A stretch of DNA of 64,000 nucleotides from UHGV virus genome UHGV-1440165, one strand, 5' to 3'. The stretch comes from a virus. The notes under the pieces were generated by a model. The model saw nothing but the letters and a program-made list of their open reading frames with translations, was not told the DNA's origin and did no database searches. The position numbers and the translations under genes are program-made. This document shows, one piece after another, positions 27,448 to 62,548 of the stretch (its first letter is position 1; every line of letters starts with the position of its first letter).

Positions 27448-27825
27448 ATGAAACAGTTCGTAGGATTGTACGCAGTGGGATGCAGCAAGCCAGATGCTAT
27501 CCTCACCGCAGGGGAATTTGTTACAGGAACACCAGTGTATCTGTCACAGCTGGCGTCTGATAAGAACTTACCATCGGAACCGCGCTTTGTGCCACTTGGC
27601 CTGATGACAGGCATGAAAGTTGGCTTGTACATTGGTGTCGTTACCTTCAACGATGGTATCGAAGCGAAGGTGCTGCCATTCCAACTCAACAGTGAGCAAA
27701 CACTGAAAGAAACGATTGCTGAGCATCTGAATCCTCAGTGCCTGGCTTCCCTCGATAAATTGTTCGGCGCGGCGGGAGATGAAGGCGAGGCCACCCCCGC
27801 CTATGTGAATCAAGATCAATCGTGA
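27448..27825 (+). CDS. Hypothetical protein on plus strand
   Basis: 125 aa, ATG start, protein-like composition; the overlapping minus-strand ORF 27423..27689 looks non-coding. Confidence 0.45.
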   Translation: MKQFVGLYAVGCSKPDAILTAGEFVTGTPVYLSQLASDKNLPSEPRFVPLGLMTGMKVGLYIGVVTFNDGIEAKVLPFQLNSEQTLKETIAEHLNPQCLASLDKLFGAAGDEGEATPAYVNQDQS

Positions 27826-31110: not shown

Positions 31111-31139
31111 AATAGCACCTTTTGCTGTGGAGATATTTT

Positions 31140-31790
31140 GTGACCCTGATGCGCGGGATCAGTAGATTGATGTTGGCATGTGCGATGCTCTTACTCACGA
31201 GCTGTCGCATCTTTGTCACGCCGATCATTTCTGTTTCCGAATTGTGGAACCCGGAAGTGCGCACCCTACCAGTCACCATATCGGCTAATGTCCAGACTTG
31301 CAACAAAGGAATCTTGGACGGCATCGTCCAAGAGTTCCAGAACTTCCAGAAGCTCGTGCCCCTGGGTTGCTTCGAGGAGAACACCAACACCCTCAAACCG
31401 TATTGGAAGACAACCATTCCACTTCTGCGCCGGGGCGATGAAGGGAAGATACCTTACCTGTCTGCCAGTATTTATTACTCCCAGAACAACAGCATCATCA
31501 TCACATTCAATCCATCATTCTATAAAAAACTGAAGCAGCACACTGTGGGGCGTGTTGATGTTGGATCAGAAGTGATTGTTACATTCAAGATCGTGAACGA
31601 CACAGGCAAGCCCGTCCGGATCGCAACTCAGGGCGTGTTCGTCAACAATGATGCCGTTGGGAATGAGATGAACATCTTTGAAGTGAAGCCAGAGGGAACG
31701 ATCTGGGTCAGACTGAGCAATGTGGGAGTGAACTCCCTACTGTTGGATGGCATCGAACCAGTGGGAGTTCTTCCGGCGCGGGAGCGCTGA
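31140..31790 (+). CDS. Putative lipoprotein on plus strand
   Basis: GTG at 31140 preceded by GGAGA (ATG at 31149 also in frame); basic n-region, hydrophobic LMLACAMLLL, lipobox LTSC; convergent with 31791..32519. Confidence 0.5.
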   Translation: MTLMRGISRLMLACAMLLLTSCRIFVTPIISVSELWNPEVRTLPVTISANVQTCNKGILDGIVQEFQNFQKLVPLGCFEENTNTLKPYWKTTIPLLRRGDEGKIPYLSASIYYSQNNSIIITFNPSFYKKLKQHTVGRVDVGSEVIVTFKIVNDTGKPVRIATQGVFVNNDAVGNEMNIFEVKPEGTIWVRLSNVGVNSLLLDGIEPVGVLPARER

Positions 31791-45582: not shown

Positions 45583-47793
45583 TCACCGTCTCAACCATTC
45601 TTCCATAGACATGCCGGAACGTTCGTCATAAACCTGGATTCCACCAAAGCCTGGCACGTTCTCTATGGAGTGTGGATCAGGGGCAGACAGCACTCCCCCG
45701 AATGGCATCATCTGTGATTCTTCCATCGCAGACAAACGTCCCCTCATGTCCACTGAGATGCTTGAGTTGGTGAGATCACTAAACCATTCTTGTTTCACCG
45801 CCCATGCATAGAGCACGAGAGGCATTACACAGTCATCATGACAACCATCGTCGGCTTCATACCTTGTCCCAGTCCATACGAATGTACTGAGTTCATCGAT
45901 TGTGTCCTGATCGTCGATAACCAACATCTCACGTTCGATGAGAGCCTTGAGGTTGGCACAACCATTCGAACGCACTTTCTTGTTGGTGTTGATACCAGGT
46001 TCAGGGCGGCGGCCACCAATTCGTTTACCAGTGCCCTTCGCATCTGTCGTGGTGAAGATGATCTCTGGATATTCAATTTCCTGATATAGAATTGTGATTA
46101 CCTGGCCACCCACGTCGTTGTTGGTTTCAACCAGCATCGGGCACGTGCCATACTTCTCGCCCATATCGGCGATAGTGTATGCATACATCATTGGAGGTAT
46201 CGTGTTGTTTCGATACTTGGCCGCAATCTTGTGAGGATAATCTGTGATGTCCAAGATGGTCAGAACAGAGTAATCCCCCTCCACTCCCTTGCCTGTATCG
46301 GCGATACCCATGTAGATGCGCTTCGGATCGTAATCGTGATAGATCTTGGTGAACTCGTTTGGCTCCTGATAGAGCTTCGAGGTCATCTTGTCTAAACACT
46401 TCGCCGGGATCAATGAGCCGACAGAACCACGGAACTTGATACCGAATTCCTGATCGAAACGTGCATCGCCCAGCTTCGCCCTCTGTTTGGATTCCCAGTT
46501 TGGATCTTTGGTGTACGTTGGAACGCGATACCATGGGACCTCTGTGAGTTTGAAGTCGTTGTACTGAGGATGCTCTGGGTTCGCCTTGGTGACGATGTCG
46601 TAGAACAACCCGCGCTGGCCTTTCGGTGTACTGGTCAGGATACAACGTGAAGTCTCTGCAGATGCAATCGCGGGGAATGTAGACTCCCAGAATTCAAAGT
46701 CGTTTTCAATGAACGCCACTTCGTCCACATATAGGAGCGATACAGATCGACCACGGATGGAGTCGGATGATGTCGCATAGGCGTAGATCTTCGAACCGTT
46801 TTCGAACTCGATAAGCGTGGAGCCGAACTTCTCACAACCCTGTTGGAGGAAGAATGGCAGATCCTGATACGCCTTGCGGATACGGTCCAGGATTTCAATC
46901 GCCTGCTTCTCTTTGTTCGCCAGTACCGCGATCTCTTTGTCGGAGTGGAACATCGCATACCAGAGGAGGAACGCTGCCACGACTGTCGTGTTATGGCTGA
47001 GGAACCCACCTGTGTAATAACGCTGATCACTCGACTTGACTTGCAGGTCGAACATGTGATGCATTTCACCAGTCTGCCAGACCTCGGCCACTTCTTCTAA
47101 ACCATCTTCGGTCTGAAGGTAAGACCCGGCCTCCAGGTCTTTGGCGAACACTTCCTTCATGTTGCTATTGAAGAACATGTGATCGTCGGCAACGTGAATG
47201 CGTCGACCTGTGGTGGTGACAACCACATACTCCTGATACTGCTTCGTCTTGTGCGCTGCAATAACCGGAACCCAGCCTTTGTCGCAACGAACAAAATAAC
47301 GCTTGCCGAAGCGGCTGTCTACGAACTTATCGTGCTTGCCAAAGGCATTCAGTGGCTCAGCGTGATTCGGTCCCTCGAAGCGGCTGTGAAGCTCCTCGAT
47401 GGTGATGCTGAACTCTTCCTGGCTGACAGTGTCATACACAGTGATGTAAGTGTCGCCCTTCACACACTTACCAGACTGACGCGCCTGCACGACTGCATTG
47501 AAGCGGTGATCCTGAAAGTCGTGGAACAATTGCTTCTGATAATCGTGCATATCGAAGAGGATGAAGCCCTTATCGATTGTCGTGATCTTGTAGTAGTTGG
47601 CAGCGAAGTAATGGGCGTCCATCGCACACTCGACGAACTCAGATTCCTGTTCATCAGTCAGCATCAACTCTACACGAGGAGCACGCACAGACGGCTTGCG
47701 CATGAACGTCTGGTCCATACGCAATCTGACGTCTTCGATTTTGAACCCCGTCTTTATCGGGGCGTATTCGATATCACGCTTCTGATACGCCAT
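45583..47793 (-). CDS. Terminase large subunit (gp17-like) interrupted by a mini-intein
   Basis: ATG at 47793 with GAAGGTGA RBS (track start 47802 is GTG). Removing the insert restores the Walker A motif ARQSGK-TT. Confidence 0.8.
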   Translation of the reverse strand: MAYQKRDIEYAPIKTGFKIEDVRLRMDQTFMRKPSVRAPRVELMLTDEQESEFVECAMDAHYFAANYYKITTIDKGFILFDMHDYQKQLFHDFQDHRFNAVVQARQSGKCVKGDTYITVYDTVSQEEFSITIEELHSRFEGPNHAEPLNAFGKHDKFVDSRFGKRYFVRCDKGWVPVIAAHKTKQYQEYVVVTTTGRRIHVADDHMFFNSNMKEVFAKDLEAGSYLQTEDGLEEVAEVWQTGEMHHMFDLQVKSSDQRYYTGGFLSHNTTVVAAFLLWYAMFHSDKEIAVLANKEKQAIEILDRIRKAYQDLPFFLQQGCEKFGSTLIEFENGSKIYAYATSSDSIRGRSVSLLYVDEVAFIENDFEFWESTFPAIASAETSRCILTSTPKGQRGLFYDIVTKANPEHPQYNDFKLTEVPWYRVPTYTKDPNWESKQRAKLGDARFDQEFGIKFRGSVGSLIPAKCLDKMTSKLYQEPNEFTKIYHDYDPKRIYMGIADTGKGVEGDYSVLTILDITDYPHKIAAKYRNNTIPPMMYAYTIADMGEKYGTCPMLVETNNDVGGQVITILYQEIEYPEIIFTTTDAKGTGKRIGGRRPEPGINTNKKVRSNGCANLKALIEREMLVIDDQDTIDELSTFVWTGTRYEADDGCHDDCVMPLVLYAWAVKQEWFSDLTNSSISVDMRGRLSAMEESQMMPFGGVLSAPDPHSIENVPGFGGIQVYDERSGMSMEEWLRR
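46990..47466 (-). mobile_element. Mini-intein inserted in the terminase P-loop
   Basis: 159 aa insert beginning with Cys (GK|CVKGDTYI...) and ending ...GGFLSHN|T (His-Asn then Thr). Confidence 0.65.
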
Positions 47794-48481
47794 TGTCTTC
47801 ACCTTCTTCCTTCGGCTGCGGCTCCGCCTGAACGTCGATTACATCTTCTTCAGGAGCAGGTTCTTTGGCCGCAGATTTCGCAGCAGCACGCTCGTCAGCC
47901 CGTCTTTTAGCATCTTCAATAGTCTTCAGCAGATCACGCGAAGACCTGGCCTGTTTGCCGACGTTGACTGTTGTTGTGCCATCAGGAGATGTCGTGACTT
48001 CAACAGTCGTTTCATCACCAGGAGGCGGCTCTCTGTCCCCTGTGACAGCCTTGATGGTTTTTTGGTTCTCCATCAGGTCTTTGTTCAGGCCGCGCATGAG
48101 TTCACCCAGCTCTTTGAAGACTGTGAACGCGCGGGGCGCTTCTGTCGTCGTCGCGAGTTTGGCCGCCTGTCCCATCATGAACATGGTGGCCTCTTGCATC
48201 GCATAGGTCGTGTCACGGATGCGTTTGTAGTCGGTGGTGGCATCAGTGTCTTCGAAGTCTGGAACTTTAGACTCCTTGGACTTCAACTCTTCCGGGTCCA
48301 GGGATGGCGGGAACACCACAGGCTCGTACCCTGCAGGCTTTTCACCCAGCCACTCACCTGTATCTGGATCGTAATCCACACCAGCCTTTGGAGTTGTTTT
48401 CTCCATGACCTCTTGAGCGACTTCATCCCTTGCATGGATAGCATCAAGAGTGCTCAGCAAACGTTCCGACATGTTACTCAT
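47774..48481 (-). CDS. Putative terminase small subunit (by position)
   Basis: ATG at 48481 with GGAGA RBS; 3-prime end overlaps the terminase large subunit start; charged, low-complexity C-terminus. Confidence 0.4.
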   Translation of the reverse strand: MSNMSERLLSTLDAIHARDEVAQEVMEKTTPKAGVDYDPDTGEWLGEKPAGYEPVVFPPSLDPEELKSKESKVPDFEDTDATTDYKRIRDTTYAMQEATMFMMGQAAKLATTTEAPRAFTVFKELGELMRGLNKDLMENQKTIKAVTGDREPPPGDETTVEVTTSPDGTTTVNVGKQARSSRDLLKTIEDAKRRADERAAAKSAAKEPAPEEDVIDVQAEPQPKEEGEDNGVSEA

Positions 48482-48483
48482 AA

Positions 48484-49179
48484 TCAATCTCCAGGATGAT
48501 GTACACCGTCTTTGTCAACACGGAACCACTCAGGCAGTTCCGACCACGGCGTTTTCAAATCATTAGACATTTCAATAATTATCTCTTTGATTCCGTTCGG
48601 ATCTCCGCCGCCACCCTGGTCCACCCAATAATCGTAGCCATAGATGAACCCACTGAGCACGAAGGTGAACGTGCAGTCGACGTGTGGAGATTCGCTGGCA
48701 TCCCCTTCCCAGTTGTCGGACATCTGGTGCCCGGTCAGCTGGATCTTGATCTTCTGATCTTGCTGAAGAGTGTCGTTGTCCTTGATGGCACAATCCAGAG
48801 AAGGAGTGTACACAGAATAAATCTGCTCCAGCACCTGCAACATCTCCACCAGTTTCTTGGTCCGGATATTGTACTCGAAATCGATGTTGACTGGGATTCG
48901 CTGTTTTGCCCCCGCCGTCTGTGTTGTTTGACGGTTGTGGAAGGACTTGGTCACGCTCTTATTCGGTTCGAATTGCCCAAAGCTGAAGGTTGCGAACGGC
49001 AGCATATTGGACGGCACGTTCCTGTTGAGGTCATTGCGCCGCCCGATTGCCATATGCAGGGGGACTTCCATCAGGCCACGTTCTGTGTTCACCTTCAGGT
49101 CCGACATGATGGTGGCAAACAGATTGATGTACTTCAGGAACGACTCGTGATAGAAGTATTTTTCAAATGGTCTGGCCAT
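48484..49179 (-). CDS. Putative tail completion/sheath stabiliser protein (gp15-like by position)
   Basis: 231 aa ORF, ATG start, in the slot that T4 gp15 occupies. Confidence 0.35.
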   Translation of the reverse strand: MARPFEKYFYHESFLKYINLFATIMSDLKVNTERGLMEVPLHMAIGRRNDLNRNVPSNMLPFATFSFGQFEPNKSVTKSFHNRQTTQTAGAKQRIPVNIDFEYNIRTKKLVEMLQVLEQIYSVYTPSLDCAIKDNDTLQQDQKIKIQLTGHQMSDNWEGDASESPHVDCTFTFVLSGFIYGYDYWVDQGGGGDPNGIKEIIIEMSNDLKTPWSELPEWFRVDKDGVHHPGD

Positions 49180-49181
49180 GG

Positions 49182-49832
49182 TTAGTCTCCGAAGTCAATC
49201 TTCAGTTTGTCTAGCGCGAGGTCTTGTTCTAACACATCGGCCTGCGCATTATCAGTCTGAAGAGACGAATCTTTGTACACACCCGGATCCCCTTCTTCGT
49301 CCAGGATAGACAGACGCTTATCAATGTCGTCGATCTCTGGTACGCCAGTGTCGAAGTTCTCGTTGCCGTACTGGAACAACGTGCATGGCAGGGAATAGGT
49401 GTGCCACTTGCCGAACTGCATGAAGTCTTCGTCATTGTTCGGGTTGTTCACTTTGAAGATCTTGTTCGCCAGCGGCAGGTAAATCAAATCACCTTCCTGT
49501 GGCTGTTGTTCGAGGCCGACACCGTTGCCAATGACCTCTGCGAATCGACGACGAGAAATAGAGAACGTGACCTCGTCCTGCAGCTGGATACCCCCGAACT
49601 TCTCCCACATCTGGGTGTTGAAGCCCTGGTAGTCCTGCATGTACGCTTCGATGTCGAACGCCTGGTCGAATCTGTGGTTGGCATCGTTGGTGATAGGAAA
49701 TTTTTCAACGATGGAACGTGGTATATACTTGATGTCTATCCCACGCAACTCAATCATTTCCTGTACCAGGTCATCAATCAGCTTTTGGGTGCCGTTGTGT
49801 CCGGTGTAGTTGAAATATTTTGAAGTGGCCAT
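49182..49832 (-). CDS. Putative neck protein (gp14-like by position)
   Basis: 216 aa, ATG start; preceded by a late-promoter-like motif. Confidence 0.35.
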   Translation of the reverse strand: MATSKYFNYTGHNGTQKLIDDLVQEMIELRGIDIKYIPRSIVEKFPITNDANHRFDQAFDIEAYMQDYQGFNTQMWEKFGGIQLQDEVTFSISRRRFAEVIGNGVGLEQQPQEGDLIYLPLANKIFKVNNPNNDEDFMQFGKWHTYSLPCTLFQYGNENFDTGVPEIDDIDKRLSILDEEGDPGVYKDSSLQTDNAQADVLEQDLALDKLKIDFGD

Positions 49833-49856
49833 ATCAATACCCTCAATTTTGAAGGT

Positions 49857-49863
49857 ATTTAGT
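49857..49863 (-). promoter_or_regulatory. Late-promoter-like motif (GACTAAATACCTT)
   Basis: About 25 nt upstream of the 49832 start. Confidence 0.45.
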
Positions 49864-49891
49864 CGAAGTTTATTCTTTTGAGGAATAGCTC

Positions 49892-50104
49892 ATGCAAGTG
49901 GAAGACATCAAAGAAACGCGCGATGGTCGCCGGGTTCGTATTATCTGTATTGATGCGAAGATTGGCGGTGGGGTTTACAATACTGTTGGGCTGGTGAAAG
50001 AACCTGATGGCACCGACTTCATTGAGTGGTGGAACATCACTGAAATGACAGAAGACGGTCTTGTGCGAGGCAGTGGGGACGGCAGTTTAGATCTCAAGCT
50101 GTAA
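49892..50104 (+). CDS. Small hypothetical protein on plus strand
   Basis: 70 aa, ATG with GAGGAA RBS; followed directly by a canonical intrinsic terminator. Confidence 0.45.
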   Translation: MQVEDIKETRDGRRVRIICIDAKIGGGVYNTVGLVKEPDGTDFIEWWNITEMTEDGLVRGSGDGSLDLKL

Positions 50105-50131
50105 AAGAAAGCCGGGGAAACCCGGCTTTTT
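50105..50131. terminator. Intrinsic terminator, bidirectional architecture
   Basis: AGCCGGG-GAAA-CCCGGCT followed by TTTTT on the plus strand and by a T-rich run on the minus strand. Confidence 0.65.
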
Positions 50132-50132
50132 G

Positions 50133-50885
50133 TTATCCCATGTAGAAGTCGATAGGGTACTGCTGACCAGTACGCAGTTCTTCCTCCAACCGCTCGATCT
50201 CCGCTTCGGCCTCGCTGAACATAGTATCACCATCCAGCTCGATACCGCCAGGGAGACGGATGCCTCTTGCCTTCTTCAGCACCTCTGCCCAACGGCGTTT
50301 GACCAACGCTGTCGCATATGCCTTCAGCCACATGTCATTCCATGCTTCTTCATTGCCCTCTACCTCTGGGTCAATGTTCTGGAAACATTTGAACGCCAGA
50401 GCCTCGTCCTTCGTCAGGGCGAATTGAGGGTAGAGCCTGCGTTGGAATTTCTTGTACACGAAGGTGCGCTTCACATTCAGCACACTGGTGATGTCAGACA
50501 GGCGCTGCTGCATGGACACGTAGTCAATCAGGCGGATGGAGACCAGAGCCGACTTCGGCACCAACATGGCCTGCGCCATCTGCCACTGAGGGGTTGCCCA
50601 GTTGCCGATAGATTCGATCGGCGGACCAGGAATTACTTCGGTCACGTCATCGATGTCTTTGGGGAATTCGATGTAGCCGTTGGTGATGGTTTCTTCAGTC
50701 ACAACATGGACGAAGAAAGCGTCTTGGCTGCCATCGCGGTGATACTCCCAGAATTTCTGTAGAGCATCATCGACAGCGTCTGACACCTGTGATGGGTCGA
50801 GGTTGATCTGAATTACAGGTGCCCCCAATTTTTTGAGGATGTAATTCATAAACCCCTTGCGGTCTCTGATGGAATTAACGGACAT
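50133..50885 (-). CDS. Putative neck protein (gp13-like by position)
   Basis: ATG at 50885 with AAGGGGA RBS (track start 50903 is GTG). Confidence 0.35.
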   Translation of the reverse strand: MSVNSIRDRKGFMNYILKKLGAPVIQINLDPSQVSDAVDDALQKFWEYHRDGSQDAFFVHVVTEETITNGYIEFPKDIDDVTEVIPGPPIESIGNWATPQWQMAQAMLVPKSALVSIRLIDYVSMQQRLSDITSVLNVKRTFVYKKFQRRLYPQFALTKDEALAFKCFQNIDPEVEGNEEAWNDMWLKAYATALVKRRWAEVLKKARGIRLPGGIELDGDTMFSEAEAEIERLEEELRTGQQYPIDFYMG

Positions 50886-51213
50886 TGGTGTTCCCCTTAC
50901 CACTCTGGAGATCAGATACTGTAATCCGCAGAGTTCGCACGTCGTCGGACAGACTGCTGCTATTGAGTTTTAATTCAGCAACATTCTGCTTGACGTAGTT
51001 GACGTCTGTGTTCAACACAGCGATCTTCTCACTCATATCGTTGACTTTCACAAGGATCTGGTCAACCTTGTTAGAATCTCGCTCAACCACGTCAAGTCGA
51101 TTCTCGAACTTGCCCATCATCCAAACAACAGAGCCGACGGAGACTATCGCCGCCGTCAGCACCCCGGTGAGGATCGCTTTCACATCGATCACGCTGTTAG
51201 TTTGAGTTGTCAT
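50875..51213 (-). CDS. Membrane-anchored coiled-coil protein
   Basis: ATG at 51213 with AGGAGG RBS; N-terminal hydrophobic helix AILTGVLTAAIVSVGSVVWMMG followed by coiled-coil-like sequence. Confidence 0.5.
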   Translation of the reverse strand: MTTQTNSVIDVKAILTGVLTAAIVSVGSVVWMMGKFENRLDVVERDSNKVDQILVKVNDMSEKIAVLNTDVNYVKQNVAELKLNSSSLSDDVRTLRITVSDLQSGKGNTNVR

Positions 51214-51445
51214 CTTGACCTCCTGACGGGAGTTCGATCCCGAGGTGTTCTGCCAACATCTGGACAGTACTGTTAAGACGCTCAATCTGGGCAGCCTGGT
51301 CAACGATGACTTGTTCTCTGGTCTCTTGTTGCTGGCGTGCACGTAAGGCCGCCAACCCCGCCGCATAGTCTGTATTGACGATTGCGCCAGGGCAAGAGTT
51401 GCTTCTCATCATTGATGCGTGCCCCTGAACTTTTACTCCACGCAT
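51197..51445 (-). CDS. Hypothetical protein
   Basis: 82 aa, ATG start; overlaps the downstream gene start by about 17 nt. Confidence 0.4.
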   Translation of the reverse strand: MRGVKVQGHASMMRSNSCPGAIVNTDYAAGLAALRARQQQETREQVIVDQAAQIERLNSTVQMLAEHLGIELPSGGQDDNSN

Positions 51446-57058: not shown

Positions 57059-59497
57059 TTACCAAGACCAAAGATTACCATTGGTATCACAGTTTCCAGT
57101 AGCAACAACCTTAGTCAGACCAGAACCACCCCTAGTCTGGAAGATGTTACCAGTAAGGTTAACAAGTGAGGTGTTTCCATAAGATATATTAATATCTTCA
57201 GAATACCCATAAACTATATTAGCTGACACAGTTGCAATTGCACGGCTATCCGAGTTTGTATTATCCAACCTGATACCATACTGACCAGGTGATACTGATG
57301 CATGTACAATCTGGTTGTTACTGATATTAACGTTACCAACGCTGCGAATATTACCAACAGTAAGAGCGGTATATGCCCCAGGAGTTGGTGCAGTAAACAG
57401 CATTTGATTGCCATTAAAGGAAAACCACCGCAAGCCTTGGGTTGTTGTGGTATTGGTAGTTGTTGTAACTTGGATGTTTTCAAACTGGTTATTATCAATC
57501 TTAACAGTTGCACAGGATTTAATGTGCAGAATTGCCTGCTTATTAAATGAAGTAAACTTGTTATTGACAAAGCTAACTGAAGTTAGTACATCTTGGTCTT
57601 GTTCATAATAAATACCACCAATTGATGTATACTCTGATGGGTTATTAAGAACAGCCGTGTTACCATCAAAGATAACACCCTTGCAAAGACCAATAGCAAC
57701 TAAGCAACCATTTAGTGCATCCTTGGTGTTATTACCTACAGCTACAGAATCAGTACAACTCTCAAAGTCAATGCACACATCTTTGCAGCCATCAACAGCG
57801 TTGCCAGTGATAGTAACCCTATCACCCATAGCACCCCAAATGCCACCTACGGCATTACGTACAGTGTTACCAGAGATTGTTACGTCATTACACTTACGAG
57901 GCTTAGTCATGTCATAGCCCTCATCTGCTTTAAGTGCATCTCCACCAACGAACTGGATACCTTCCTTGTGACCATCAATGTAATTACCGCTAATACGCGC
58001 CATCTTTGCATATGCAGTATAGATTGCAGCTGGTCTGAATGGCGCCCCAAGCACACCATCACCACTACCATAAGACTGACAGTTTACAACTTCAATGTTA
58101 GTACAGTAATCTGCATCCGTTGTAATAAGTGGATATGCACTACCAGCACCAAATCCAATATCATGTGCAATCATGGGGTTTGGACACTTACGAGACTTAG
58201 TAGAGAATAGCGCCATTATCACAGAGACACAGTTACGCATTGAAACATTGTTACAGGAGACTAAGTTAACAGCTGGTGCAAGTGATACACTAGATGCGGC
58301 ATCAAACCTAAGACCTTTAAAAACTATGTTAGATTTCTCAATACCTGTAAATACAGCTTGCCCCTCTTTATCAAGCGTCACCTTGATAATGGCATTATTA
58401 CCACTATGTATCTGGTTAGATTCGAGCATAAGTACACCAGAGTCAACAAGATAAGTACCAGCTGGGTAATCTATCTTGCGTGCACCAGATAATATTGCAG
58501 ATTGAAGGGCTGCGGTATCATTTGTAACACCATCACCGATAGCCCCAAAGTCACGAATGCTGATCGTCTCCAGTAGTTTGTCATGAACTGTACGTGAGAC
58601 GGCACTTGCTAACGGCTGTTTCATCCCTATCAGGGCATCACCTAATACAACGTTAGTAGTGTCCACAAGGTCGTCGCGTAGGTTAGGGTCAGTTTGCGGA
58701 ATCCAATCCGCAGTACCGACCGGGTTAGCCCCTGCGGCTATGACGTGCGGCAACGTCCCGGCCCATGAGTACCACGTCTTACTCACAGGGTCATACACTA
58801 CCTTATTACGGTCGTTAACACCGAGTGTACCTCCAGTATAGAATGTAAACCCAGCGTCAGTGTAGCCATTTTCAATCGCCCAATTAAGTTTTAATTTAAC
58901 CAAGTCAGTATCAATATCATTAAGTTCTTCCTGTACAGTTTGACCGGAAGACGTACCAATCAGACTTGCGCCTCCATCGGAAGAGAGCGCCAGGTAATTC
59001 TGCTTAATGGACATTTCTGCCACGACCCAAACTCCAGCCGCAGGCGAACCTGTGAGGAAACTCACAACTCCTGTTGTGCTGTTGTAGCTGTAGTTGACGC
59101 CAGGAACCTGGAACCGCCCATCGACGTACAGGGACTGCACCCCATAAGATGTGAAGTCTGGGGTGAATGAGGTCTCGTTGCCAACGGCCTGGAATTTGTA
59201 GATGCGGATCCCGTTTTCATAATCTTCTGGGGACAGGATCTTGTCAAACAGACAGTACACTACATCATCAGCCTCCAGCGCTCGACCGAGGTTGACTGTG
59301 TTGCCATCGATTTCGTAATTGTCTACGGGAACCTGAACTCCACCATTGATGGTGATGAAGCCTGTAACGGGATAGAACGGGAGGGAGATAAACGTCTCTC
59401 CACCCGTTGCTGTGTAAGTGTATGGAATCTGGTGCGGGGCTGTTACAACCGCTCCAAAGATGCTCTCGACGTTTCTGGTCATTTGAAGATACCCCAT
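57059..59497 (-). CDS. Tailspike protein with pectate-lyase-type right-handed beta-helix (putative depolymerase)
   Basis: 812 aa; IRDFGAIGDGVTNDTAALQSAI (about 58493..58558) is the hallmark N-terminal motif of pectate-lyase-superfamily beta-helices; N/T/G-rich repeats downstream. Confidence 0.7.
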   Translation of the reverse strand: MGYLQMTRNVESIFGAVVTAPHQIPYTYTATGGETFISLPFYPVTGFITINGGVQVPVDNYEIDGNTVNLGRALEADDVVYCLFDKILSPEDYENGIRIYKFQAVGNETSFTPDFTSYGVQSLYVDGRFQVPGVNYSYNSTTGVVSFLTGSPAAGVWVVAEMSIKQNYLALSSDGGASLIGTSSGQTVQEELNDIDTDLVKLKLNWAIENGYTDAGFTFYTGGTLGVNDRNKVVYDPVSKTWYSWAGTLPHVIAAGANPVGTADWIPQTDPNLRDDLVDTTNVVLGDALIGMKQPLASAVSRTVHDKLLETISIRDFGAIGDGVTNDTAALQSAILSGARKIDYPAGTYLVDSGVLMLESNQIHSGNNAIIKVTLDKEGQAVFTGIEKSNIVFKGLRFDAASSVSLAPAVNLVSCNNVSMRNCVSVIMALFSTKSRKCPNPMIAHDIGFGAGSAYPLITTDADYCTNIEVVNCQSYGSGDGVLGAPFRPAAIYTAYAKMARISGNYIDGHKEGIQFVGGDALKADEGYDMTKPRKCNDVTISGNTVRNAVGGIWGAMGDRVTITGNAVDGCKDVCIDFESCTDSVAVGNNTKDALNGCLVAIGLCKGVIFDGNTAVLNNPSEYTSIGGIYYEQDQDVLTSVSFVNNKFTSFNKQAILHIKSCATVKIDNNQFENIQVTTTTNTTTTQGLRWFSFNGNQMLFTAPTPGAYTALTVGNIRSVGNVNISNNQIVHASVSPGQYGIRLDNTNSDSRAIATVSANIVYGYSEDINISYGNTSLVNLTGNIFQTRGGSGLTKVVATGNCDTNGNLWSW

Positions 59498-62541: not shown

Positions 62542-62548
62542 TATTTAG
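62542..62548 (-). promoter_or_regulatory. Late-promoter-like motif (AACTAAATACCCC)
   Basis: About 38 nt upstream of the 62504 start; overlaps an ACCCCTA...TAGGGGT inverted repeat. Confidence 0.45.

Follow-up and report, generated by a model that had tools for sequence, protein, structure and literature searches.

What is a 70-codon reading frame doing between the genes of two neck proteins, on the strand opposite to both of them? The locus lies in a window of 64,000 nucleotides (by which we mean the whole stretch of viral DNA analysed, from genome UHGV-1440165), and the original prediction regarded the frame as a moron-like gene with a terminator of its own. Megablast with positions 49100-51000 of the window returned 243 phage records, every one of them of the Ackermannviridae type, with Salmonella phage pSal-SNUABM-02 (Agtrevirus, 97.5% identity) as the best match and Yersinia phage CAU_YEP3 (95.2%) as the second best; the window is that of an Agtrevirus-like phage of the Ackermannviridae. 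The minus-strand surroundings comprise terS, gp15 (sheath stabiliser), gp14 (head closure) and gp13 (adaptor), and the same minus-strand run then holds small virion proteins and a 1607-aa structural protein. The small frame does run opposite to its flanking neck genes, as had been predicted, gp14 and gp13 both being encoded on the minus strand, and in the closest relative it is one of four opposite-strand genes among 55 across 49 kb.

Several features of the neighbourhood deserve mention in their own right. Only two other opposite-strand candidates lie nearby, 31122-31790 (+) and 27448-27825 (+), which correspond to pSal-SNUABM-02 genes 140 and 145; the first encodes a DUF7424 protein (E 8e-56), and no Pfam match was found for the second. 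Three of the listed minus-strand ORFs (50875-51366, 50133-50903 and 57059-59497) have mechanically assigned starts that are too far upstream: the gp13 start is most likely at 50885 (MSVNSIRD, per orthologues) and not at 50903, the gene in 50875-51366 begins at about residue 52 (the phrog_3961 match covers 52-161), and the gene of the tail-spike region, in 57059-59497, begins at the second ATG (59482), past its leader hairpin. The TerL gene (45583-47802, minus, 739 aa) appears to hold a mini-intein of ~160 aa in its Walker A loop, with putative junctions …QARQSGK/CVKGDT… and …GGFLSHN/TTVVAAF…; the Pfam Intein_splicing model scores 20.6 bits there, under its cut-off, TerL orthologues are of similar length, and one paper names the gene 'terminase large subunit precursor'. 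An Rfam scan of 49000-51000 gave no match.

Table 1. Features of the region between gp14 and gp13 (positions are those of the window, except for the endonuclease-like gene, which is located in relatives).
Feature	Position	Strand	Remarks
gp14, head closure / neck protein, flanking late gene	49182..49832	-	Pfam T4_neck-protein 4.6e-28; phrog_679
Candidate sigma-70-like promoters for the small gene, in gp14 codons 26-45	49700..49757	+	promoter scans and synonymous constraint
P1, TTTTCA-16-TATACT	49702-49729	+	reported by the scanner; same site in Vi01 and KN2-1
P2, TTGATG-17-AATCAT	49729-49757	+	Vi01/KN2-1 version TTGACG-17-TATCAT, 10/12
gp14 leader hairpin; 5' arm starts inside CTAAATA, 3' arm covers Shine-Dalgarno GAGGG	49832..49860	-	dG -11.5, z -5.3
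Late-promoter-like motif CTAAATA, would restart gp14, gp15 and terS	49856..49862	-	strand bias; invariant in relatives
Shine-Dalgarno GAGGA of the small gene, 7 nt before ATG	49880..49884	+	TTGAGGAAT invariant in 21 distinct relatives
Small protein-coding gene, 70 aa, ATG start	49892..50104	+	orthologue of Ag3 orf00201, LIMEstone1 ORF153 and Vi01_165; phrog_4466
Putative bidirectional intrinsic terminator, common to small gene (+) and gp13 (-)	50106..50136	.	hairpin in 21/21 distinct relatives
gp13, neck / head-tail adaptor, flanking late gene	50133..50885	-	phrog_211; start from orthologues (MSVNSIRD)
Endonuclease-like gene of relatives	pSal-SNUABM-02 L002:2291-2998; LIMEstone1 ORF152 L001:2292-2999; Kuttervirus Mutine L022:753-1469	+	absent from window 49833-49891

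The reading frame is a genuine small gene. Its extent and its good ribosome-binding site are confirmed, with the TAA stop at 50102-50104, and the ATG start is as invariant as the GAGGA that precedes it among the 21 distinct relatives examined. The product matches the HMM of phrog_4466 significantly and over its full length (E 9.5e-33, 112.9 bits, residues 1-70 on profile positions 1-70 of 70), so that it belongs to this family; no paralogue was found within the window. Orthologues in Shigella phage Ag3, Dickeya phage LIMEstone1, Salmonella phage Vi01 and pSal-SNUABM-02 (gene 113) are alike in strand and in their position between gp14 and gp13, are 70-74 aa long and have 55-100% identity to the window ORF, the window allele being that of pSal-SNUABM-02 (100% identity). 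Neither the gene nor the cassette is new: the records of Ag3, LIMEstone1, Vi01 and other phages, more than 270 genomes in all, list a hypothetical protein here, and the LIMEstone1 paper described the cassette in 2012.

Conservation across relatives had been named as a way to check the prediction, and the ORF is not disrupted in them. A tblastn search with the small ORF found 280 phage records, in 272 of which a single match spans 80% or more of the query; some 275 phage genomes have the gene intact, and both the ORF and the hairpin behind it are kept across at least three genera. Records outside Vibrio number ~276, against ~273 records with a close gp14 (at least 80% identity), and by this match in counts the small gene accompanies gp14 essentially one-to-one throughout the enterobacterial Ackermannviridae (Agtrevirus, Limestonevirus, Kuttervirus, Taipeivirus and their allies). 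Among eight genomes, pN/pS is 0.145 for codons 1-47 and a relaxed 0.55 for codons 48-70, to be compared with 0.117 for gp14 and 0.106 for gp13, at synonymous sites that are near saturation (mean pS 0.74-0.78). Codons 1-47 of the small ORF are under purifying selection that is comparable to that on the two neck genes. In the protein, a near-invariant core (residues 1-47) is followed by a C-terminal third that differs from genus to genus, and nearly all of the 28 residues that are invariant among 23 cluster representatives fall within the first 47. A chance ORF or a spacer is excluded by this selection and conservation, and a foreign, compositionally odd island was rejected because the GC content of the small ORF (~0.50) equals that of its flanks (0.48-0.55).

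The comparison of the window with CAU_YEP3 shows a different side of this history. Identity drops to 62-78% across ~49912-50092, with flanks at 93-100%, and pS reaches 0.73 in the ORF, compared with 0.135 for gp14 and 0.067 for gp13. This contrast with the flanks, in identity as well as in pS, shows that recombination has exchanged the body of the ORF between close relatives; the crossovers fall within the ultra-conserved 5' region and the terminator.

A gene that faces its late neighbours raises the question of when it is transcribed. The motif CTAAATA occurs ten times on the minus strand of the window (at 62548, 59525, 56361, 49862, 45579, 42858, 39663, 39307, 32554 and 29356) and not once on the plus strand, where ~3.5-4 copies would be expected per strand, and most of the copies precede a minus-strand start codon by 25-45 nt. 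This strand bias, together with the spacing to the starts, suggests that CTAAATA is the late-promoter core of the phage in the window; the motif also precedes gp14 in Vibrio phage D506. For their own search, the authors of the Ag3 paper used the T4 consensus TATAAATA, and they state that no regulatory sites had been identified for ViI. Upstream of the small ORF, neither CTAAATA nor TAAATA was found on the plus strand of the window.

The arrangement is altered in ~46 Ackermannviridae genomes by a plus-strand gene of 235-238 aa (CapR zinc-ribbon repeats and a MUG113/T5orf172 domain of the GIY-YIG superfamily) between gp14 and the small ORF, and the window is without this 708-bp endonuclease-like gene, which precedes the small ORF in pSal-SNUABM-02 and LIMEstone1. 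Its identity of 97% between Limestonevirus, Agtrevirus and Kuttervirus marks the insert as a mobile gene that resembles homing endonucleases. It takes the place of the first ~30 nt of gp14 and of the promoter region, and the old start and late promoter remain downstream as a remnant. The accessible text of the LIMEstone1 paper never mentions ORF152, and its table lists 14 endonucleases. Relatives with the endonuclease gene have a TAAATA-containing element that faces the plus strand, and the LIMEstone1 annotation places a possible late promoter on the plus strand in the endonuclease-bearing version; late expression of the small gene is possible in such phages, in which its timing may differ. 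We also considered the small ORF as a partner or immunity factor of the endonuclease-like gene and rejected this reading, because the small ORF is present with or without the insert and because the endonuclease is nearly identical across genera whose small-ORF alleles are ~65% identical.

The product itself is a protein of 7.8 kDa and pI 4.5, acidic, hydrophilic and soluble, whose predicted detectable tryptic peptides include IGGGVYNTVGLVK and EPDGTDFIEWWNITEMTEDGLVR. AlphaFold2 with the family alignment gave five beta strands (pLDDT 86.8, pTM 0.72), which the model arranges as a five-stranded beta-barrel, probably of the SH3/Tudor-like type. Neither the protein nor any of 50 remote relatives matched a model in Pfam or NCBIfam, the local Pfam scan being without the model for PF26890, for which known carriers (P0064, P0112 and P0128) gave no match either. 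A PDB sequence search returned only a chance match (E 0.56), and Foldseek against viral predicted structures returned uncharacterised proteins only. A profile search of 1.8 billion representatives found 82 proteins, in which the domain often occurs in 2-3 tandem copies, with the consensus TRDGRxVRIxCxDxK..Y.VGL...DG.E.IE.W..DG......DL; a second profile search led to 808 clusters, including many proteins of ~120 aa that carry PF26890 (Phage_HP1_YO09). The alignment by hhalign of the small-protein family with a PF26890-carrying relative has 95.5% probability (E 1.4e-8), and the link to PF26890 comes from this alignment and the profile search, the precomputed Pfam field being empty for the 70-aa proteins. 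These results indicate that the small protein is probably a distant relative of a large, uncharacterised phage domain family. Our literature search for PF26890 or phrog_4466 found nothing usable.

The genomic surroundings of these relatives are informative. Those of the PF26890 type lie in long runs of small unannotated genes, and one adjoins an AcrVA2-like gene. Two Vibrio phages, 1.031.O (L004:2845-3210) and 1.255.O (L005:2965-3249), carry the same beta-barrel domain in differing contexts: one copy has a 55-aa N-terminal extension and lies in a run of small same-strand genes, and the other adjoins baseplate genes. From these differing contexts, it follows that the domain has moved between genomic positions of different kinds.

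LIMEstone1 ORF151 and ORF154 are flagged as 'confirmed structural protein' and ORF153 is not, Vi01_165 has no structural label while its neighbours have one, and the virion mass-spectrometry table in the main text of the Sajous1 report lists gp143, gp145 and gp146 and omits gp144, which, from the numbering, would be the orthologue of the small ORF. Detection in purified particles is not recorded in the literature and annotation evidence, as far as these sources were accessible, with the proviso that small proteins are easily missed in virion proteomes. Taken together, the fold, the family context and the missing virion label favour a non-structural, protein-binding accessory role.

A different role inside the neck module would be that of a morphogenesis helper, that is, a late-expressed chaperone or assembly factor for the gp13/gp14 neck that is not kept in the virion. 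Such a function would fit the exact position of the small ORF between two neck genes in every enterobacterial Ackermannviridae genome, and in those relatives that carry the endonuclease gene, the plus-facing TAAATA-type element, which has been annotated as a putative late promoter, would provide for late expression. Yet the small ORF is opposite in strand to all neighbouring late genes and has no plus-strand CTAAATA in the window to serve it, a Vibrio relative has orthologous gp13 and gp14 without the small ORF, and the distant relatives of the protein are found in arrays of small non-structural genes and not in morphogenesis modules, with the same domain placed in other contexts elsewhere in Vibrio phages. 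We consider a helper of this kind unlikely, and prefer to regard the product as a non-virion accessory protein.

Whether the gene forms a cassette of its own depends to a large part on its terminator. The ORF had been said to end 1 nt before a hairpin followed by a T-run, with a second T-run in the other orientation, and this description is borne out. The stem is formed by 50106-50116 and 50121-50131, with a GAAA loop at 50117-50120 and a GC core of GCCGGG/CCCGGC. Read on the plus strand, the hairpin (50106-50131) has a dG of -20.1 kcal/mol [z -4.0, 0/200 shuffles as stable] and is followed by the tail TTTTTGTTAT, with the U-tract at 50127-50136; read on the minus strand, the same stem has a dG of -15.2 and is followed by CTTTCTTTTAC, and the U-tract (the complement of 50098-50110) overlaps the stop codon of the small gene. 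A GC-rich stem-loop with a U-tract is found on both strands, which is the sequence pattern of a bidirectional terminator. The stop codon of gp13 (50133-50135) is 1 nt off the other side of the hairpin, just as the stop codon of the small ORF is 1 nt off the near side, so that the whole 28-nt convergent gap is terminator.

This structure is maintained across the group. Hairpins of the 21 distinct relatives have dG values from -16.5 to -21.3, as read from per-sequence folds, the MAFFT alignment of such short hairpins being out of structural register. One C-G pair of the stem is exchanged for G-C with compensation on the other arm (GCCGGG/CCCGGC vs GGCGGG/CCCGCC), and the loops vary freely. Kuttervirus genomes have a degraded tail on the plus strand (CTTCTCTTAT) and a strong one on the minus strand, the side of gp13 (TTTCTTTTTAT). 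The terminator is already annotated, for both strands in Ag3 and for one of them in LIMEstone1; a simple terminator scanner missed the site in the window, probably because its greedy stem absorbs the T-run, and the same scanner reports the counterparts of the site in Vi01 (minus strand) and KN2-1 (plus strand).

The origin of the layout can be read from Vibrio phage D506. Its gene order (large structural protein, small virion proteins, gp13, gp14, gp15, terS) is that of the window, and the ~85 nt from gp13 to the real start of gp14 contain no ORF. What the gap does contain is a hairpin (dG -23.4, z -4.7) with the U-tract UUUUUGUUUAUUU, directly after which comes CCTAAATA, 29 nt ahead of ATGGCTACTAATAAATAC (MATNKY, the start of gp14). 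Nothing lies between the adjacent gp13 and gp14 genes in cyanophage P-RSM6 and in a Schizotequatrovirus (Vibrio phage TCU-VP04-AIR2). We conclude from these comparisons that the ancestral layout was gp13, terminator, late promoter and gp14, and a gap that has terminator and promoter without an ORF shows that the small gene entered backwards between these pre-existing elements, in the enterobacterial lineage. The idea of a self-contained gene with its own terminator is not supported, because the terminator and CTAAATA already stand between gp13 and gp14 in the Vibrio relative that has no ORF, and because the T-tract of Kuttervirus is good only in the direction of gp13. The same two observations suggest that the terminator is common to both genes and is primarily or equally that of gp13.

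How much of a moron, then, is the small gene? It lies between genes that are adjacent in related phages, and its insertion origin and its exchange by recombination agree with the label that it had been given. The rest of the label does not fit: presence is neither sporadic nor recent, since the gene is found in essentially every enterobacterial Ackermannviridae genome, its composition is not atypical, and its terminator is common with gp13. As to a promoter of its own, the plus strand is without the late motif and offers weak sigma-70-like sites in gp14, at a cluster of synonymous constraint. The term accessory fares similarly, as distant relatives do sit in arrays of small accessory-type genes, while the self-containment that came with it does not stand. 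Hence, the small gene is moron-like only in origin and layout, and is now fixed in the enterobacterial clade.

For the stronger claim that the gene is a dispensable lambdoid-type moron of recent acquisition, with a role in host fitness or exclusion and a private promoter and terminator, one could cite the additional DNA that separates two genes found side by side in other T4-related phages, the recombination-swapped ORF body and the words of the LIMEstone1 authors, who in the accessible part of their paper call the small ORF an insertion with its own promoter and terminator. We hold this claim to be very improbable, given that the gene occurs in intact form in essentially every member of several genera, has the GC content of its flanks, and ends at a terminator that is older than the gene and serves gp13. 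Moreover, the enterobacterial Ackermannviridae are virulent phages, to which lysogenic conversion does not apply.

With a late promoter missing from the plus strand of the window, candidate promoters of the host type come into consideration, and these lie within the 5' part of gp14 (Table 1). Their hexamers score weakly in the window (9/12 and 8/12), and the chance level of sigma-70-like matches is high, with 13 found vs 6.8 expected at the Vi01 locus. An independent signal comes from 24 distinct gp14 sequences, in which the lowest synonymous diversity falls on codons 28-49 and overlaps the candidate promoters [permutation P = 0.0004 with windows of 20 codons, 0.002 with windows of 16]; among the longest invariant runs of gp14 are 49723-49732 (ATATACTTGA) and 49700-49707 (ATTTTTCA), which coincide with the hexamers of P1. 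On the strength of the hexamers and of this constraint cluster, we infer tentatively, and with a confidence that stops just short of even, that a host-type promoter embedded in gp14 drives the small gene. Such a promoter would give pre-late expression and a leader of 130-155 nt that is antisense to the 5' end of gp14. The synonymous constraint could instead serve the mRNA of gp14 itself. A search of the literature for Ackermannviridae transcriptomics or transcription-start mapping found nothing usable.

The 59 nt between the two start codons (49833-49891) are more conserved than the coding sequence. On the minus strand, leader hairpins similar to each other are found in at least four late leaders (62546-62504, 59523-59480, 49860-49832 and 32552-32519), with dG values from -11.5 to -19.7 and z from -4.2 to -7.1, and in these hairpins the 5' arm begins within CTAAATA and the 3' arm masks a GGGG/GAGGG Shine-Dalgarno sequence. 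The leader hairpin, the promoter and the Shine-Dalgarno sequence would together explain the near-invariance of these 59 nt. The least credible reading, in which the protein is incidental and what matters is plus-strand transcription, either antisense to the 5' end and late promoter of gp14 or as convergent insulation of the gp13 and gp14 units, can draw on this conservation and on the overlap of ~70-100 nt of gp14 coding sequence, leader and late promoter by an RNA from 49736-49764, but it is opposed by strong purifying selection on amino acids where synonymous change is saturated, by the invariant Shine-Dalgarno sequence and ATG, by a confident predicted fold in a recognisable domain family, and by the gp14 elements that account for the intergenic conservation.

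To account for the reversed gene and its surroundings, we propose an explanation that we regard, as a whole, as somewhat probable: a fixed reversed insertion with a common terminator encodes a protein-binding module that is made before the late phase and is not part of the virion. The small gene entered in reverse into a gap that held the terminator of gp13 and the late promoter of gp14. The terminator would work, or at least is built to work, in both directions and so end the transcripts of the small gene and of gp13, and gp14 would restart from its own CTAAATA late promoter. Expression would take place ahead of the late genes, by host sigma-70 RNA polymerase from one or more promoters in the 5' part of gp14, and the small gene would be shut off late. 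Its product would be a cytoplasmic protein-binding module of an accessory or host-interaction type. One may go further and see in the 70-aa protein an early host-takeover or anti-defence factor, a minimal single-domain member of the HP1 Orf9-like family that is expressed from a host-type promoter within a late structural gene and binds a host protein, possibly RNA polymerase in the way of the CarD/Mfd Tudor domains, with a C-terminal third that is tuned to the host; so specific a proposal is a speculation that we think quite unlikely to be right in full.

What this study adds to the earlier descriptions is the selection on the gene and its universality in the clade, the recognition of the terminator as the pre-existing end of gp13, a promoter location that can be tested, and the link to a large domain family. 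The small protein is a convenient minimal member of this widespread family, and a binding partner, if one were found, could annotate hundreds of phage protein clusters. Since these phages are used in the biocontrol of Salmonella, E. coli O157, Dickeya and Klebsiella, every conserved gene in them is of some practical interest.

Several known systems resemble parts of this locus. In the case of T4 gene e, gene 49 and I-TevI, the ribosome site is masked in read-through transcripts, and translation is possible only from RNAs that begin at the late promoter. The late-leader hairpins of the window look like this arrangement, and by analogy they may function in the same manner. At the level of the protein, PF26890 Phage_HP1_YO09 proteins have the same beta-barrel domain, and the window protein is the bare 70-aa domain without the C-terminal extension of these ~120-aa proteins. 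Among the closest known systems are the RNA-polymerase-binding Tudor-like domains (CarD and the Mfd RID, the NusG KOW domain, the C-terminal Tudor domain of PcrA/UvrD) and PipX. As for morons, the small gene is like them in being extra DNA between genes that are adjacent in relatives, in having an intrinsic terminator after the gene, in being exchangeable by recombination and in being read independently of the surrounding late operon. It is unlike them in that it is fixed across its clade, has an ordinary base composition, ends at an ancestral terminator that it has in common with gp13, and is carried by virulent phages under a promoter that is only putative.
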